Shown here piece by piece: positions 18,001-24,000 of a stretch of DNA of 64,000 nt. Within the stretch, counting starts at the first letter, position 1; every line of letters starts with the position of its first letter. The DNA comes from an uncultured Methylomirabilota bacterium (GTDB lineage: Bacteria > Methylomirabilota > Methylomirabilia > Methylomirabilales > 2-02-FULL-66-22): NCBI GenBank assembly GCA_963845565.1, contig CAWJSJ010000001.1, positions 512,001 to 576,000 on the forward strand. The letters are read 5' to 3'. The position numbers are program-made.

Positions 18001-21000
18001 CTGTTCTCACCGCCGGCTCGGCGGGTTCCCGGAGCGCGAGTACGCCGGGGCGGAGATGACCATCTGCTCGTCGCGCGGTGTGGAGACCCAACGAGTCCGG
18101 ACGGAGACGGAAATGCCGGATGTCTTCCAGGCGGTCTACTTCGGGAACGCCGGCTCCCTCTACCGAGGGGAGGAGATCTTCCGGCTTCGCATGGGGCTCG
18201 GGCACGTGCTGGCCAAGCGGTATGGCGACACCGACGCCGATGTGATCATTCCGAACCCGGAGTCCGGGCGCGGCGTCTCCCACGGCATCGCCGAAGGGCT
18301 CGGGAAGCCGTTGCTTCCTGGGCTTGCCAAGCAGTCCCAGGCCATCCGCACCTTTCAGGAGGCGGGGCGGAGCAAGCGGATGCGGGAAGTGGCGGTCAAG
18401 TTCGCCGCCATGGACTCGGTCCTCGCCGGGCGACGCATCATCATGGGGGACGATTCCATCGTCAAAGGAAGCGTGAGCGAGGGCGGTGCGGTCTGGAGCG
18501 TCTACAACGCCGGGGCGGTAACACTGGAGTTTTGGGTTTCGTACGGCCCCATGTTTTTCCCCTCCTTCAAGGAGTGGCGCCGCGGCCGGGAGTGCCTGGA
18601 CGAGTTGGCCGTGCAGCGGGCATTCCGTGGCGACAACCCGTACGACAAGACGCCGGAGGGGATCAACGCCAAGGTGGCTGCCCTGTTGGGGGTGGATCGG
18701 GTCTGTTACAATACGTTCGAGGGCGTGAGAGCGGTCATCGGTCCGGGTTCGTACCAGGCGCTCGACGCGTCCTATCCCGTCGCGGAACGGTTTTGGCCCG
18801 CCTGGCTCAAGGAGGAAGTGGAGCACTTCAGCCACTATCGCTGAAGCCAAAGGGGGTTGTTTGACAAAGCGCGACGGCCGCGCATTCCCGATCCGCGTAC
18901 CGCGCAGGAGGGATTCATCACGAACTGATTACAACGCGCGATTCGGCGTTGCCATTCCGAGTCGCGTATAACAGAATGGACTTCAGCGAGCGCACCGGGG
19001 ATGTTCGTACCGAGCCGCCGTGCGCGGAAAGCGGAGCGGGAGCAGAACGTCTGCAGTGTGGAATCGCTCCCGAATCGATCATCGCGGGAATCCGCCGCCG
19101 TACTGCAGGCAACCTGCACCGGTCAACGGCGGTCCAAGACGATAGGTGTGAAGCGTGAGCACGCAGGCAGCTCAAATCTACCGGTTCGACGCGAGCGGAT
19201 GCAACGGGTGCGACGTGGAGGTGGTCGAGATCCTCGCCATTCTACCGGGCGCCGACCTCGGGTTCGAGATCGCCGAGCGGCCAGATGACGCGCAGGTCCT
19301 GATCGTGACGGGCGGGGCCAATCTCAAGTCCAAGGCGGAACTCCAGCATGCCTACGCGGCCTTGAAGGCGCCCCGATTGGTCGTTGCCGTGGGGTCGTGC
19401 GCGGCGAGCATGGGGATCTTCAAGGGCGGCTACTCCATGACCGGCCCGATCGATTCGATCATCCCTGTCGACCTATACATCACGGGGTGTCCGCCGCGGC
19501 CCCAGGTGATCCTCGGCGCCCTGGCGGAAGCCCTGCAGCTTTCGGTGGACGGCCTGGAGCCGCTCCTGCGAACGCCGGAGGGGTATCGGGGCGATCCCCA
19601 CGTCGATCGGGAGACCTGCGTCGGGTGCAGCGCGTGCGCGAACGTCTGCCCCGCGGATGCGATCGAGATCCTGGACGGCGAAGGCCAGCGGGTCGTCCGG
19701 TTCAGGCGAGAGGCCTGTGTCTTCTGCGGGACCTGTCAGGACGTCTGTCCGACCGAGTCGGTCACGTTGCGGGCCGGGGATCCGTCGTGGTATCGGGTCA
19801 AGGGCGCCTCGACGTCCGAGGCGGCGCTGCCGCTGGCCCAATGCGGCGTCTGCGGCGCCGCGTTCATGCCGGAGGCGCAGCTCGCGTGGGCGATGCGACG
19901 TGTCGAGGAGCGCCGCTCGCTGGACGCGGGCGATCGCGCGGCAATCCGGCGCAGCCTCCACGTCTGCATGGCATGCCGGCGAAGCCGGATCCCCGACGTC
20001 CGGGAGGCCAAGCGTCTCTTGACGTCGCTGGAGAAGAAGACCGCGATCGTATCGTAGGCGATGGCCCCGGAGCATCCGGCCCCGCGCGAGCCCGCGGGAC
20101 GGGTCGGGCGCCCGGTTCGGGAGAGCGAATCGTGGAGTTGGGTGCAGCCAAGAATCGGGTGATCGTGTATGACGCGGGCCTGTGCACCGGGTGCCGCTAT
20201 TGCGAGATTGCCTGCGCGGTGTGGCACTGCGGTCGGATCGACGTCGGCCAATCGAGGATCCGCATCCTGTTCAACGCCGAGAACCGCACAGAGCCGTATG
20301 CGGCGGTGAACTGCCAGCACTGCGAGGAGCCGCTCTGCGCGACCGTCTGCCCGTCCGAGGCCATGCACAAGGATCGCGAGACCGGATGGGTGACCGTGAA
20401 CGCCTCGACCTGCATCGGCTGCGAGATGTGCCGGGCGGCCTGTCCGCTGGCCGTGCCCGTCTTCGACGAAGCCCAGAAGGTGGCGGTGAAGTGCGATCTG
20501 TGCCACGGGGAGCCGGAGTGCGTGAAGCACTGCTCGTCGCGGGCGTTGTGGCTCGCGCCCCGGGAGGAGGCCCTCCGCGTGAACGAACGGTTTTACCTCG
20601 GTGCAGGGGGCAATCCATGAGCGCGGATACGGTACGGCGGCTCTTGGAGCGGCGAATCTCGGGGGCGCGGTTCACCTGCGCCGATTCGGGCGTGCGGCGG
20701 ACGGGCGTCACGCTACAGGCGGGGGAGGTCCGGGATGCCGTCCAGACGCTCTGCGCGGAGCCGGGGGCGCGATTCATGACCCTCACGGCCGTCGACCGGG
20801 GGACGGATATCGACCTCTTGTATCATATCTCCCTGCGGAGCGGCGTGGTCACCCTCCGGGTCGTGATCGCGAAGGAGACGAGCGCGATCGAGAGTATCGC
20901 GGACCTCGTTCCCGCGGCGGAGCTGGTGGAGAAAGAGGTGGCGGAGCTGTTCGGAGTGGGATTTGCAGGCCATCCGCGCGCCGCGAACCTCCTGCTGCCT

Positions 21001-24000
21001 GCCGACTGGCCCGTCGGCAAGCGGCCGCTGCGCAAGCCCCTCGTCGGTTCGGTTATTGCGCAGGCTCGCATCACCGCCGAGAACCTGGTGGCGAGCGGCT
21101 CCTCGATCGGCGTGGCGCGCTCCTCGATGGCCCGGCGCGAGAAGGCGGGACTGCCCAAGGTTCCGCCCTTGGTGGCGGCCGACCCGGATCGCTTGCGAGA
21201 ATTCCAGGAGTTCGTGAAGCGGACCGGCTTCGGCGAGCGGGCGGGGTTCGACTGGGCGAAGGGAAAACTCCGGTACAAGTAGAGCTGCGGGGCAGGTGAT
21301 GAGGCGACAGGCGCTCTTCCTCGGCTGTGTACTGCCGCTCCGGTTCCCGGGCATCGAGCTGGCCGCCCGACGGGTGTTCGGCCAACTCGGGGTGCCGTGC
21401 GTGGACCTCGAAGGCTATTCATGCTGCCCCGAGCCGGTCGTCCTCGGCTTGGCCGACCCCGACATGGCCCTCGCCGTCTCGGCGCGGAACCTGGCACTGG
21501 CCGAGCGGGCGGACGCGGACCTGACGGTGATGTGCAACGGCTGCTACGAGACGCTGGCCGAGGCGGATGCCGCGCTCCGGCACGACGGCGGGGCGCACGC
21601 GCGGGTCGCGCAGCTCTTGGATGGGATCGGGACCCGTTACGAGGGAGGGGTCCGGATCAAGCACTTCGTCGAGCTCCTGCACGAGGACGTGGGGGTCGCC
21701 CGCATCGCGGAGCAGGTGACGACCCCGGTCGACGTGACGGTCGCCGTGCACTACGGGTGCCACCTCTTCCGCGAGGTCGAGCACGAGGACACCCGGCGGA
21801 AGCCCCGGATGCTGCGGGCCCTGATCGAGGCCGCGGGGGCGCGGGTGGTCGACTACGGCTTGGAAGATCTTTGCTGCGGCTTCCCGATCTCGCAGTTCGA
21901 CAAGCGCATGGCCATGCAGGAGCGCCTCCTCCCGAAGCTCCGCGCGCTGGGCGCGACGGGCGCGGAGGCGATTCTGTTCTGCTGCCCGGCCTGCCTCAAC
22001 CAGTTCGAGAGCGGGCAGGGCCCGGCGGGCGACCTGGCGGCCGACGTCCCCCGGTATCCGTGCGTGCACATCCTGGAGCTCTTGGCGCTGGCCTTCGGGA
22101 TGCGGCCGGCGGAGCTGCACCTCGACGCGCGCTTCGCGCCGTCCAGGGAATTCGTGGACTGTTTCTGGGGGTGAGCCGCGACGCGGCGCTCCTTTCGTTT
22201 CGGATGACGGACATGACCACAACCATCACGATCGGCCCCTACCACCCGTACCTGCTCGAGCCCAGCATTGTCGACCTGCAGGTTGTCGACGGGCGCGTGG
22301 CGGACGCCACCATCACGGTGGGGTTCGTCAACCGGGCGGTCGAAGAACTGATGACGAAGAAAACCTACCGCCAGGCCGTGGTGCTGGCGGAGCACGTCTG
22401 CGGCATCTGCAGTAACGTCCACAGCCTGGCCTTCTGTCAGGCGACCGAAGAGATCCTGGGGGTCGAGATTCCGCACCGGGCCCGGTACGTTCGGACGATC
22501 GTCGTGGAGCTGGAGCGGCTGCACAGCCATTTCCTCTGCCTGGGACTCCTGGCCCACGCCCTCCATGACGGGGAGCATTTCGTCCGTATCATGGCGGAGC
22601 GGGAGGCGCTGATCCGCCTGCTCGAGCGCGTCAGCGGGAACCGGGTCCATTACGGTGTGAACGCCATCGGCGGCGTCCGGCGGGACCTGACGCCGGAACG
22701 GGCGAGCGATATCCTGGAGGTCCTGGGGCGGCTGGAATCGCTGGGCCATTTCGTGGTGGACGCCCTGGGCCCGGACGGGGCGCTGGGGAAGCGGGTCGCA
22801 GGGCAGGGGATCGTGACGGGACCCGAGGCCATCGCCCTCGGCGCGGTAGGGCCCACGCTGCGCGCCAGCGGGATCGAGAGCGACCTGCGGAAGGAGGACA
22901 GGTACGCGGCCTATCCGGACGTGACCTTCGATCTGATCGTCGAGACGGCCGGGGACGTCCGGTCCCGATTCCTGGTCCGGGCCCGGGAAACCCTGGAAAG
23001 CATCAAGATCATCCGGCAACTCTTCGACCGCCTGCCCGACGGACCGCTGACGGGCCAGGTGCGAGAGCCCAATATCAAGGAATCGCGAGAAGTCCTGGGG
23101 CGAGTCGAAGCACCACGCGGAGAGCTGGTCTATTTCATCCGCTCCAACGGCACGACCATTCCCGATCGGGTCAAGATCCGCACACCCACCTTCGCCAACA
23201 TCGCCTTCCTCCGCCGGGCGCTCACTGGAGCGCCGGTCGACGACACGCGGACCATCATCGAGAGCATCGATCCGTGCCTCTCCTGCACGGACCGGTAGCA
23301 GGCTGCTGAAAACGGCCCATCTGCTGCGTTGGCTCGCTGAGGCACTCGTTGCGGCGTACCCACAGTACGCCACTCGGCCTCGGGCACCCATCCACAGGAT
23401 GGGTCGCGCCGCCTTGCATCTGGACCTTTTTGATCAGCCTGGGCGAATATAGGAATTTCAGCAGCCAGTCAGTCGGGGAGGGGGCAGCCCTCACACCGCT
23501 CCGCCTTGGGCCGAGGCGCGATGGGTCGCCGCGGCTCGGCGGGTGTCTCCGCTTTCCGGACCGGATGGATGTGCACCGGCATCCCCGCGGCGACCTCGGC
23601 GGCTTCCATGAGGGCCTCGGAGAGGGTCGGGTGAGCGTGGATGGTGACCATGAGGTCTTCCAGGGTCGCCCCCAACTGCACCGCCAGGGTGCCCTCGGCG
23701 ATCAGTTCAGAGGCGTGCGGGCCCACCATCCCAACTCCCAGGACCCGCCGGGACTCCGGACAGCTGATCACCTTGACCACGCCCTCGGTGCGCCCCATGG
23801 TCCGCGCCCGGCCCGAGGCCACGAGGGGGAAGCGGCCCACAGTGACCGGCAGGTTCTGCGCGGCCGCCTCCCGCTCGGTCAGGCCGGCCCAGGCCAGCTC
23901 GGGGTCGGTGAACACCACGGCCGGGATGGCCCGAGCCTCGAGCGCCGAGGAGTGACCTGCGATCGCTTCGGCGGCAACCTTGCCCTCGTGGCTGGCCTTG

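Follow-up and report, generated by a model that had tools for sequence, protein, structure and literature searches.

Gene content of the locus

The analysed window, a 64,000-nucleotide stretch from an uncultured Methylomirabilota bacterium, contains five co-directional genes (19155-23298, plus strand) encoding [NiFe] hydrogenase subunits and an HdrB-like protein (Table 1). An earlier survey of the genome had described this five-gene operon and its domains, and the description was confirmed by the open reading frames, by Pfam and NCBIfam matches, and by the nickel motifs read in translation. The large subunit, given there as 375 aa, stands as to gene and motifs, but its start is more likely ATG 22204 (364 aa) than GTG 22171, because homologues are 361-364 aa long and start with MT(D)MTTTITIGPYHP. 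The lpd and lipA genes do lie beside the operon, as reported. The window also carries hypEDCF, common to the genome's other [NiFe] hydrogenases; HypD has a single match genome-wide, which is the copy in this block.

Table 1. Genes of the hydrogenase cassette, its neighbours and the maturation block (positions in the window)
Feature	Position	Strand	Description
NuoB-like + 2x[4Fe-4S] small subunit	19155-20057	+	300 aa, Oxidored_q6 and Fer4 domains
Fer4_11 ferredoxin, DmsB/HybA-like	20132-20620	+	162 aa, Pfam Fer4_11 3.6e-16
NuoC-like subunit with HdrC-type C-terminal arm	20617-21282	+	221 aa, Pfam Complex1_30kDa 5e-20
HdrB-like subunit, two CCG domains	21296-22174	+	292 aa, Pfam CCG in two stretches
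Group-4 [NiFe] large subunit	22204-23298	+	Pfam Complex1_49kDa 5e-59 and NiFeSe_Hases
Dihydrolipoyl dehydrogenase lpdA	23469-25043	-	convergent with operon; TIGR01350 492
lipA	25401-26342	+	beside operon
hypE, hypD, hypC, hypF maturation genes	40991-45900	-	Pfam AIRS/AIRS_C, HypD 6e-154, HupF_HypC, HypF domains

Catalytic and electron-transfer subunits

The large subunit contains CGICSNVH and the C-terminal DPCLSCTDR, and stops at this second nickel motif without a C-terminal extension. Its closest solved relatives are MbhL (6cfw_L, 3e-67) and HycE (7z0s_E, 1.6e-54). In the small subunit (Oxidored_q6, 1.5e-22, plus Fer4 families), a NuoB-like domain with the four Cys for the proximal cluster is joined to a NuoI/HycF-like 2x[4Fe-4S] domain, residues 139-278 matching the HycF-type NCBIfam model PRK12387, and an additional CxxC...CxxC is found at the C-terminus. 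All 16 Cys of this fusion are invariant in 23/23 sequences of the soluble clade described below, while the 16 Cys of the Fer4_11 protein, sufficient for four [4Fe-4S] clusters, and the ten CCG-domain cluster Cys of the HdrB-like protein are each invariant in 27/27 sequences.

The HdrB-like protein, the presumed disulfide-reducing site, has HdrB TIGR03288 as its top NCBIfam match (242 bits, under the cut-off of 345), and matches solved HdrB chains with E values of 1e-62 to 6e-51. A feature recognised in this analysis is the HdrC-type arm that ends the NuoC-like protein: following the NuoC-like domain (residues about 30-142), residues 154-218 align with the final 65 residues of solved HdrC (8rvu_c, E 2.4e-6; 5odc_C, E 8e-5), so placing the arm at about 154-218. 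It is kept in 27/27 aligned HdrB-linked loci, and the NuoC match, about 330-450 bases long in ordinary group-4 loci, extends over about 650 here. By this resemblance, the arm is likely a tether for HdrB.

The HdrB-like protein and the NuoC tail were co-folded with Fer4_11 as partner, alongside three controls. The set scored 0.88 against 0.00 for the best control, passing a mark attained by 116/157 solved complexes and 2/215 mismatched pairs; the runs share at least 90% of contacts, Fer4_11 has a pLDDT of at least 83, and the predicted interface places Fer4_11 Cys18, Cys21 and Cys134 opposite HdrB Cys155, Cys193 and Cys194. Because a similar HdrB-HdrC complex has been solved, this pass may mirror likeness and not binding by this particular copy. 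On the basis of the model, Fer4_11 is proposed as the wire to the HdrB-like subunit.

Absence of membrane subunits

None of the five proteins contains a membrane helix. Their highest 19-residue Kyte-Doolittle means are 1.29-1.54, compared with 2.47-2.72 in the genome's NuoH, NuoL and MrpD, in agreement with the survey's finding that no such stretch reaches 1.6. It is nevertheless conceivable, if very improbable, that the enzyme is still membrane-associated through subunits encoded elsewhere or through another complex, its apparent solubility being an artefact of considering neighbouring genes alone. The Drh hydrogenase of Methanocella is termed 'putative membrane-associated' (available excerpts of PMC6046458), and the genome does contain other loci with membrane arms, two of group 4 and two of complex I type, as well as a fifth, weak pair of NuoD-like and NuoH genes. 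Each of the five NuoH-type genes, however, adjoins a different NuoD-like gene and not that of the cassette. Furthermore, throughout the 24 Bathyarchaeia loci and the bacterial-order clade the NuoB-NuoI fusion goes hand in hand with NuoH loss; membrane-bound relatives retain NuoH, with NuoI and NuoB as separate genes. No NuoH, NuoL or Mrp genes were found in 20/20 extended Bathyarchaeia cassette loci (5-17 kb fetched).

Distribution and origin

Close orthologues of the cassette occur in 5/20 other genomes of the genus and 0/230 other genomes of the phylum, consistent with the restricted distribution noted in the survey. Metagenomes from wetlands, sediments and freshwater contain near-identical DNA, with 13 studies represented among the matches listed. 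The same five-gene membrane-less cassette is present in about 32/401 sampled Bathyarchaeia species genomes. The description of a group-4 hydrogenase free of membrane subunits, with an HdrB-like subunit and kinship to Bathyarchaeia, holds, but the soluble form is not the bacterial speciality it had been taken for. Nor are Bathyarchaeia the closest outside relatives: these belong to an unbinned lineage of GC 45-47%, which has the window's gene order and bacterial-type flanking genes.

In the large-subunit tree, the soluble clade (support 100/99) has membrane-bound HdrB-linked clusters as its sister group (88/90). The latter are joined (support 97) by a Methanomethylicia cluster comprising fer4_11, Mrp, nuoC with the tail, hdrB, large subunit, NuoH, NuoI and NuoB, a gene content matching that published for Ehd in the available excerpts of PMC9723716. 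The enzyme is best read, from its sequence relationships, as a soluble offshoot of the archaeal Ehd/Drh enzymes, derived from membrane-bound HdrB-linked group-4 hydrogenases of Ehd type. When the five proteins are concatenated, the bacterial-order clade falls within the diversity of Bathyarchaeia (AU p 6.8e-5), which gives an archaeal origin, as suggested in the survey, the backing of a formal test; with the large subunit by itself, the alternative to nesting is not rejected (p 0.18). The immediate donor may have been another bacterium, because the nearest outside relatives have bacterial-type flanks and the window's gene order.

Decayed copies are found in 2/6 cassette-bearing genomes of the genus (a split large subunit in G019, all five genes fragmentary in G016), and the enzyme is therefore dispensable. 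They also raise the possibility that the cassette is a decaying, functionless relic of a transferred gene block in this genome too. This is highly improbable: the window's copy has five open frames and a full set of intact metal ligands, and the ligands are invariant between clades diverging up to 50-60% in sequence. RNA-library contigs from four studies overlap parts of the operon, and contigs at least 99% identical span parts of three cassette genes; the runs were chosen by this stretch and such libraries can hold DNA, so that the contigs give a faint hint of expression.

Comparison with known hydrogenases

HdrB-linked group-4 hydrogenases have already been proposed for archaea. Ehd and Ehd-like enzymes are proposed HdrB-interacting group-4 [NiFe] hydrogenases of Methanomethylicia, Culexarchaeia and Bathyarchaeia (Kohtz et al. 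2022, PMC9723716, in part), and share with the present cassette a Fer4 protein, a NuoC-like protein with an HdrC-type tail, an HdrB-like protein and a group-4 large subunit in identical order. The Ehd type retains NuoH, separate NuoI and NuoB, and Mrp/NuoL antiporter subunits; by contrast, the present cassette has no membrane genes, NuoB and NuoI are fused, and the hosts are bacteria. Drh, the 'disulfide-reducing hydrogenase' of Methanocellales, compared by description only, likewise belongs to the group-4 type, contains HdrB and lacks an antiporter subunit. It is proposed to carry out H2-driven disulfide reduction and was upregulated in syntrophic co-culture (Lyu and Lu 2015, as cited in the excerpts of PMC6046458 and PMC9723716), but differs in being described there as putatively membrane-associated, with CoM-S-S-CoB as proposed substrate.

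The Bathyarchaeia soluble cassette, for which a literature search found no published description as such, encodes the same five proteins, including the NuoB-NuoI fusion, without membrane subunits, and its large subunit is 50-55% identical to that of the window. Its small-subunit gene is last, while that of the window is first; its flanks often contain hycI together with hyp genes, an HdrC-like gene accompanied by another hdrB, or mvhD with an HdrA-like gene, and, unlike the window, it lacks lpd and lipA. MBH of Pyrococcus furiosus and FHL of E. coli provide the best solved large-subunit relatives, and the C-terminal half of the small subunit resembles HycF. Unlike the cassette, both are membrane-bound, ion-translocating or formate-linked, and without HdrB. 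Besides the HdrC-type arm, new here are the Bathyarchaeia soluble cassette, the GC-45% relatives of the window's cassette, the five-protein nesting and the replacement of lpd.

Proposed electron path and direction

With rather better than even confidence, the cassette is read as encoding a cytoplasmic, anchor-free, Ehd-type-derived [NiFe] hydrogenase complex coupling H2 to a thiol/disulfide couple. Gene content, intact ligands, the lack of membrane subunits, the HdrC-type tail and the place in the tree are directly shown; we infer complex formation, electron path, direction and substrate, the path being deduced from cofactor-binding residues. The Ni-Fe site of the large subunit would handle H2, and electrons would pass to the proximal [4Fe-4S] cluster of the NuoB-like domain, the two [4Fe-4S] clusters of the fused NuoI/HycF-like domain, the four of the Fer4_11 protein, and lastly the HdrB-like subunit, at whose two noncubane clusters a disulfide would be reduced or a dithiol oxidised. 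The NuoC-like subunit would anchor HdrB to the hydrogenase via its C-terminal 65-70 residues, the HdrC arm, which would correspond to the part partnering HdrB in solved Hdr complexes. Because NuoH and an antiporter subunit are missing, the enzyme would not pump ions, and the free energy of H2 oxidation by disulfide would go into driving the reduction. The cassette has lost the membrane parts and carries a disulfide-reducing subunit, and therefore probably links H2 to intracellular thiol/disulfide chemistry. If this reading is true, a normally membrane-bound hydrogenase type has been rewired to such chemistry.

H2 uptake is the most likely direction, and HdrB-interacting group-4 hydrogenases have been proposed as disulfide reducers (excerpts of PMC9723716 and PMC6046458). 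An H2-evolving, dithiol-oxidising valve for reducing equivalents at very low H2 partial pressure, fed for example by dihydrolipoyl groups or by NADH via Lpd, appears unlikely. Most characterised group-4 hydrogenases do evolve H2, as do the nearest solved relatives, MBH and FHL, and the wetland, sediment and freshwater settings of near-identical DNA are ones where syntrophic H2 removal is presumably common. Against this, electron transfer from dihydrolipoyl to protons, by textbook potentials, runs about 120 mV uphill under standard conditions, loss of the membrane subunits leaves no ion gradient as driver, and what has been proposed for Drh and Ehd leans towards H2 uptake (PMC9723716 and PMC6046458, as excerpted).

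Alternatively, the cassette may be one arm of a bifurcating or confurcating system, in which an HdrA-like flavoprotein with MvhD, or else a ferredoxin, binds at Fer4_11 or at the additional Cys site, and H2 oxidation is coupled to the reduction of both ferredoxin and disulfide, as in Mvh-Hdr. A simple wire would need fewer clusters than the seven or more of this chain; a GltD/HdrA-like flavoprotein gene and mvhD lie within about 5 kb of the cassette in 6/24 Bathyarchaeia loci, and an HdrC-like gene and a second hdrB lie downstream in six others. However, no HdrA-like or MvhD gene adjoins the cassette in the window, the genus loci or the GC-45% lineage, and Pfam finds no flavin-binding domain in any of the five proteins, making a bifurcating role here doubtful.

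The neighbouring lpd and the lipoyl question

Within the host genus, the cassette is accompanied by a distinct lpd in place of the resident one. Of the genome's paralogues, the cassette-side gene alone exceeds the TIGR01350 cut-off (492 versus 408.8), and within the genus its orthologues are confined to cassette-bearing genomes; cassette-less genomes carry, at the same site and in opposite orientation, an lpd that is 36-41% identical. The coupling to a lipoyl group suggested in the survey gains somewhat from this cassette-only lpd, but the association represents one event in one subclade, GcvH-like neighbours of Bathyarchaeia cassettes mostly lack the lipoyl lysine, and no lpd or lipA lies beside the cassette in the nearest bacterial-type relatives (GC 45-47% lineage). 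A precedent for pairing an HdrB-type enzyme with a lipoate-binding protein, instead of CoM-S-S-CoB, is the sulfur-oxidising heterodisulfide-reductase-like system sHdr-LbpA. As described in the available excerpts of PMC11094781, it has no hydrogenase, and its subunits (HdrA, HdrC1/C2, HdrB1/B2 and sulfur transferases) have no counterpart genes beside the present cassette. A protein-bound lipoyl disulfide may tentatively be taken as the leading substrate candidate in the genus, and lpdA is possibly a functional partner of the cassette: the disulfide would be reduced by the hydrogenase complex and recycled by the co-inherited Lpd.

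Gene content and neighbourhood of the cassette

The cassette comprises five co-directional genes with short gaps or overlaps between neighbours. Their open reading frames, Pfam and NCBIfam domains and both nickel motifs confirm the survey's finding of a hydrogenase operon with an HdrB-like subunit; the large-subunit start placed there at 22171 is moved to that in the table, which fits the 361-364 aa homologues better. The C-terminal half of the small-subunit fusion is HycF/NuoI-like, and the hdrB-like gene lies immediately 5' of the large-subunit gene, inside the hydrogenase cluster. 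The flanking genes are of housekeeping type, namely thiI, argS, an inositol monophosphatase family gene and a purF-like amidotransferase gene upstream, and lpd (on the opposite strand), lipA, an aminotransferase gene and purF downstream, lpd and lipA being the two genes already reported to adjoin the cassette. The GC content of the cassette (0.68-0.70) is near the genome value (0.66). A scan for consensus matches in the operon region gave a promoter-like site and no convincing terminator, and Rfam and tRNA scans of 18500-26000 gave no match. Two genes flanking the hyp operon region, of the biotin/lipoate ligase and Sir2 families, have no demonstrated link to the cassette.

Features of the cassette and its surroundings (window coordinates)
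Feature	Position	Strand	Size and basis
Promoter-like site, 5' of operon	18949-18977		consensus match alone
NuoB-like small subunit + 2x[4Fe-4S] domain fusion	19155-20057	+	300 aa; Oxidored_q6 1.5e-22; NCBIfam PRK12387, residues 139-278
Fer4_11 protein, DmsB/HybA type	20132-20620	+	162 aa; Pfam
NuoC-like protein	20617-21282	+	221 aa; Complex1_30kDa
HdrB-like protein, two CCG domains	21296-22174	+	292 aa; best model TIGR03288
Group-4 large subunit	22204-23298	+	364 aa; Complex1_49kDa + NiFeSe_Hases
Dispersed repeat, between large-subunit stop and lpd stop	23296-23445		~150 nt
hypE, hypD, hypC, hypF	40991-45900	-	hydrogenase maturation genes, within window
Biotin/lipoate ligase family gene and Sir2-family gene, flanking hyp region	39082-39891 and 46076-46825		BPL_C domain (BirA-type architecture) in the ligase

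Cofactor sites

The translated large subunit contains the nickel motifs CGICSNVH (L1) and DPCLSCTDR (L2), the four Cys of which are invariant in all 14 aligned homologues. Because the protein ends exactly at DPCLSCTDR, it has no C-terminal extension for cleavage. All 16 Cys of the small-subunit fusion are invariant in the 23 soluble-clade sequences, and are allotted to the proximal [4Fe-4S] cluster (C16, C19, C82, C112), to two ferredoxin clusters (eight Cys) and to a C-terminal CxxC...CxxC (four Cys, residues 230-274). This extra motif could hold an additional metal centre, on top of the three predicted clusters. Sixteen Cys of the Fer4_11 protein, sufficient for four clusters, are invariant in 27/27 sequences. 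In the HdrB-like protein, ten Cys (C11, C43, C44, C80, C83, C155, C193, C194, C230, C233) are likewise invariant (27/27) and make up both CCG motifs, a set for two noncubane [4Fe-4S] clusters. This protein matches solved HdrB chains with E 1e-62 to 6e-51, and scores under the curated equivalog cut-off of TIGR03288 (242.1 vs 345.15 bits).

Absence of membrane subunits

Group-4 [NiFe] hydrogenases are seen as relatives of complex I that sit in the membrane and translocate ions. The cassette has the NuoD-type large subunit and NuoB-like small subunit of this group, with Hyp machinery in the genome, but not its integral membrane subunits (NuoH-like, NuoL/Mrp-like). Averaged over 19 residues, hydropathy peaks at 1.29-1.54 in the five proteins, versus 2.47-2.72 in NuoH, NuoL and MrpD of the same genome (8-13 segments each), reproducing the earlier observation that no segment exceeds 1.6. 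No gene for a NuoH/NuoL/Mrp-like membrane subunit is present in the cassette flanks, and no MrpD/NuoL antiporter match was found at the window locus or in related soluble loci. The host genome (5.36 Mb, 6 contigs) contains five NuoD-like genes besides the cassette (two group-4 hydrogenase loci, two of complex I type, one weak match), and each of its five NuoH homologues adjoins one of these, leaving none for the cassette. Three of the other NuoD-like loci were annotated, as formate-dehydrogenase-linked, Mrp-type and complex I, and all include membrane subunits.

Outside the window, a formate-hydrogenlyase-like locus of the same genome (G000, C1:612001-626000; L089) encodes a molybdopterin formate dehydrogenase, a HycE-like NuoCD-fused large subunit, NuoH, NuoL and a NuoB-like subunit, and is adjoined by an additional NiFeSe_Hases large subunit of 592 aa. 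The organism thus has several hydrogenases.

An HdrC-type tail on the NuoC-like subunit

In the NuoC-like protein, the NuoC match covers residues 38-142, and residues 154-218 correspond to the final 65 residues of HdrC chains from solved Hdr complexes (8rvu_c, E 2.4e-6; 8rvv_C, E 3.9e-6; 5odc_C, E 8e-5), an alignment at which an NCBIfam match to TIGR03290 (positions 81-142, E 9e-4) had already hinted. The tail terminates in GFDWxKxKLRYK and is present in 27/27 aligned homologues of HdrB-linked loci, membrane-bound ones among them; the NuoC match spans ~650 bases here, versus ~330-450 in ordinary group-4 loci. In the published Hdr structure, the C-terminal arm of HdrC reportedly rests on HdrB. 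A complex was predicted from the HdrB-like protein and the NuoC tail (residues 143-221), with the Fer4_11 protein as partner and a 27-row alignment for each. It scored 0.88, against 0.00 for the best of 3 controls, a mark reached by 116 of 157 solved complexes and by 2 of 215 mismatched pairs. The runs share at least 90% of contacts, with a pLDDT of at least 83 for the Fer4_11 partner, and the predicted interface sets the first cluster motif of Fer4_11 (17-23, 133-137) against the C-terminal CCG domain of HdrB (154-160, 188-201). Because HdrB-HdrC, a like complex, has already been solved, this result may reflect likeness instead of binding by this copy. The tail would explain the recruitment of HdrB to this enzyme family, and offers a sequence marker for locating all such enzymes.

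Relatives and distribution

Homologues of the large subunit form a graded series from 96% down to ~50% identity, including one (P0038, 68% identical) named Methylomirabilota and several at 50-53% named Bathyarchaeota by their sources. In the ESM Atlas, only generic group-4 clusters were returned for the homologue P0044. An HdrB-like gene stands beside the large-subunit gene in 8 of 80 loci from GTDB species genomes, the other 72 being ordinary membrane-bound group-4 loci without HdrB. A Methylomirabilota locus (L009, 70% identical) has the gene order of the window, together with lpd and lipA. Four Bathyarchaeia loci (L010-L013, 50-52%) have the order fer4_11, nuoC, hdrB, large subunit, small-subunit fusion, without membrane genes, and three others (L043, L046, L054, 44-46%) share the first four genes, after which come NuoH and unfused NuoI and NuoB, with Mrp/NuoL near. 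A cluster in a Methanomethylicia genome consists of fer4_11, Mrp, nuoC with the tail, hdrB, large subunit, NuoH, NuoI and NuoB, a gene content that matches Ehd as published (PMC9723716).

Among 251 species genomes of the host phylum, close orthologues (66-70% identity) occur only in the genus of the window, in 5 of its 20 other genomes (G008, G009, G011, G016 as a fragment and G019 as a split copy), and in none of the 230 genomes outside it. The large subunit of G019 (L167/L100) is split into two frames, and in G016 (L166) all five cassette genes, lpd and lipA give fragmentary matches only; both look like decaying copies or, possibly, assembly errors.

The cassette is common to a sizeable minority of Bathyarchaeia. 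A full-length soluble-clade large subunit, 55-64% identical to P0044, was found in 32 of 401 sampled species genomes, with one further partial copy. All 24 loci returned have nuoC, hdrB, large subunit and small-subunit fusion, as far as the contigs reach, and NuoH, NuoL and Mrp are absent from all 20 extended loci (5-17 kb). Maturation genes occur near these 24 cassettes (hycI in 10, hypF in 8, hypD and hypC in 5 each). In six loci (L012, L013, L151, L155, L158, L161), an HdrC-like gene (Fer4_8/Fer4_17) and a second hdrB paralogue lie directly 3' of the cassette, often with hypF next. Another six (L010, L154, L156, L157, L159, L162) have a conserved set of genes located 1-5 kb away from the cassette, for a 172-aa protein of unknown function, a PhoU/MazE-domain protein, an RHH-GcvH-like fusion, a GltD/HdrA-like flavoprotein, MvhD and, in some loci, DUF2061.

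The closest relatives outside the host phylum are encoded on unbinned metagenome contigs with a GC content of 45-47% (the GC-45% lineage). Their large subunits (P0042-P0060, 358-369 aa, 56-63% identical to that of the window) have no match above 64% in the 401 sampled Bathyarchaeia genomes and none in the 251 genomes of the host phylum. Eight contigs (L128-L134, L139) have the gene order of the window, with the small-subunit fusion first. Neither lpd nor lipA lies downstream, a split transketolase being in that place, and the flanks contain genes for an ATP-phosphofructokinase, a DeoC aldolase, TRAP DctM, an MFS protein and an acyl-CoA dehydrogenase. At 78% identity, the phosphofructokinase matches proteins named Dehalococcoidia/Chloroflexota (three) and Desulfobacteraceae (one). 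A search for the large subunit in 401 sampled Chloroflexota genomes gave 0 matches at 1e-125, an empty answer which shows nothing, so an assignment to Chloroflexota comes from the flanking phosphofructokinase solely. The host is probably bacterial, and the cassette is hence found in at least one bacterial lineage, probably two.

Phylogeny and transfer

In a careful large-subunit tree (36 rows, LG+C20+F+G4; ultrafast bootstrap / SH-aLRT), the membrane-less cassettes form a soluble clade (100/99), sister to the membrane-bound HdrB-linked clade (88/90). The latter includes the Methanomethylicia large subunit, which joins the membrane-bound Bathyarchaeia sequences with an SH-aLRT of 97; the tree holds no sequences labelled Ehe or Drh. 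Within the soluble clade, the GC-45% and Methylomirabilota groups form a bacterial-order clade (100/99), which groups with Bathyarchaeia subclade B, containing proteins named Bathyarchaeota by their sources (98/97). Larger quick trees, including one of 72 rows, gave the same groupings, and the five concatenated proteins (27 rows, 1329 columns) left the topology unchanged with support 99.

The earlier proposal that the cassette was gained from Bathyarchaeia-like archaea gains from the five-protein AU test, which rejected a single clade of all soluble Bathyarchaeia rows (delta lnL 27.8, p-AU 6.8e-5), although the large subunit alone did not reject it (p 0.18). In this test, the group was chosen after seeing the first tree, the root was assumed on the membrane-bound clade, and four rows (three from the host genus) failed the composition test. 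With these caveats of rooting, composition and group choice, the bacterial-order clade is nested in Bathyarchaeia diversity, which favours one archaea-to-bacteria transfer, then a rearrangement that placed the small-subunit gene first, and spread of the cassette between bacterial lineages.

A possible link to lipoate metabolism

The adjacent lpd is the sole one of three genome paralogues to pass the dihydrolipoyl dehydrogenase model (492 vs 408.8), the other two being a transhydrogenase and an FAD oxidoreductase, and lipA is single-copy in the host genome. Orthologues of the adjacent lpd (72-80% identical) are confined to the cassette-bearing genomes (G008, G009, G011, G019, with a fragment in G016), while lipA occurs in 17/21 genus genomes, cassette present or not (75-83% identity; 93% over the G016 fragment). 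Eleven genomes without the cassette have another lpd (36-41% identical) next to lipA, upstream of it and on the same strand; where the cassette is present, lpd runs in the opposite direction, converging on the hydrogenase genes. Since both identity and orientation of lpd switch with the cassette, lpd and cassette are one block that replaced the resident lpd. The lpd of the block is of bacterial type, its next relatives (63-70% identical) including, among those named, Phycisphaerae and candidate division LCP-89. The four cassette-bearing genomes group together (SH-aLRT 84) when lipA and the neighbouring aminotransferase are used for a tree, so the lpd/cassette link counts as one event. Three lipA matches (L177 in G019, L178 in G008, L189 in G017) have one in-frame TAG in the matched range, probably upstream of the true lipA start.

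Outside the genus, the link to lipoyl chemistry is thin. A GCV_H-domain gene is near the cassette in 7/24 Bathyarchaeia loci, and was rejected as a hint to the substrate, since 6 of the 7 lack the lipoyl lysine. In these six it is the RHH fusion, with ETWMF replacing the ESVKA lipoyl-lysine motif, and one such locus has a second, more divergent copy, likewise without the lysine. The replaced motif suggests that the fusion, with a GcvH fold and a DNA-binding domain, is probably a regulator, and it may sense redox state or a ligand. A canonical GcvH is encoded directly upstream of the cassette only in L163, and the host genome's own GcvH genes are located away from it.

The cassette, the Lpd inherited with it and a lipoyl carrier protein might jointly form a soluble H2:NAD+ oxidoreductase of new design, which we consider unlikely. 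In such an enzyme, a lipoyl disulfide on a protein would take electrons from H2 at HdrB, and Lpd would hand them to NAD+; in reverse, NADH could be vented as H2 at very low H2. If this were true, a group-4 hydrogenase would have been converted to a cytoplasmic enzyme with lipoate as redox mediator.

Class and proposed function

The Ech/Coo-type label first given to the cassette does not fit. Ech and Coo enzymes (groups 4e/4c) have six subunits, two of them in the membrane, and couple to ferredoxin or CO dehydrogenase; by contrast, the cassette lacks membrane subunits, has no CODH gene nearby, and is placed in the tree apart from the sampled ordinary group-4 loci. An hdrB gene within the hydrogenase cluster is shared with Ehd, Ehe and Drh (Kohtz 2022), of which Ehd and Ehe have an antiporter subunit, while Drh, like the cassette, has none.

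The best reading, which we favour with some reserve, is that the cassette encodes a cytoplasmic H2:disulfide oxidoreductase, a soluble derivative of the Ehd type. HdrB would be tethered by the HdrC-derived tail of NuoC and wired through the four-cluster ferredoxin (Fer4_11). To our knowledge, 'disulfide-reducing hydrogenases' have long been proposed and never purified, and the cassette would give a simple soluble five-subunit target for testing them. As a conserved form that lost NuoH and the antiporter subunits, joined NuoB and NuoI in one protein and retained HdrB, it would show that the peripheral arm is able to function on its own in the cytoplasm, and that direct coupling of H2 to thiol/disulfide chemistry is possible outside methanogens.

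The HdrB-linked group-4 enzymes had been described in the survey as proposed for archaea only, and the literature consulted agrees (PMC9723716, PMC6046458); occurrence in bacteria, probably in two lineages, extends the host range. Ehd, Ehe, Ehg and Drh are archaeal proposals, membrane-bound or membrane-associated (PMC9723716), Drh being a 'disulfide-reducing hydrogenase' upregulated in syntrophy (PMC6046458). Methanonezhaarchaeia have Ehg and Ehd-like complexes (PMC12700198), and Bathyarchaeia have hdrB2 inside an fpo operon (PMC8407382). As regards lipoate, the published Ehe cluster includes gcvH (PMC9723716), and sHdr systems operate with lipoate-binding proteins (PMC11094781). In the consulted portion of a paper on selenocysteine group-4 hydrogenases, Methylomirabilota appear under group 4b only (PMC13582414). 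No description of a membrane-less or bacterial HdrB-linked group-4 form was found in the open-access literature, supplements aside.

Environmental sequences and the downstream repeat

DNA nearly identical to the stretch is present in wetland, sediment, freshwater and soil metagenomes (20 of 24 runs listed, 13 studies), and RNA-library contigs from four studies cover portions of the operon. In one run (X15), these span 19025-19796, 19998-20341 and 20512-21659 with at most 7 differences each, and in another (X18) they have ~95-96% identity across most of 19345-23328. Because RNA libraries can hold DNA and the runs were picked by this stretch, these contigs are a weak hint of operon expression.

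The dispersed repeat between the large-subunit gene and lpd has 40 further matches in the genome at 75-93% identity (222 candidates at first look), and none to Rfam or tRNA models. It forms a long closed hairpin-like fold (-69 kcal/mol, z -3.4), and gives rise to a depth spike of RNA-library contigs in four runs, where loose ends occur at either border. Its features resemble those of MITE/REP-type elements, and it may terminate transcription in both directions.
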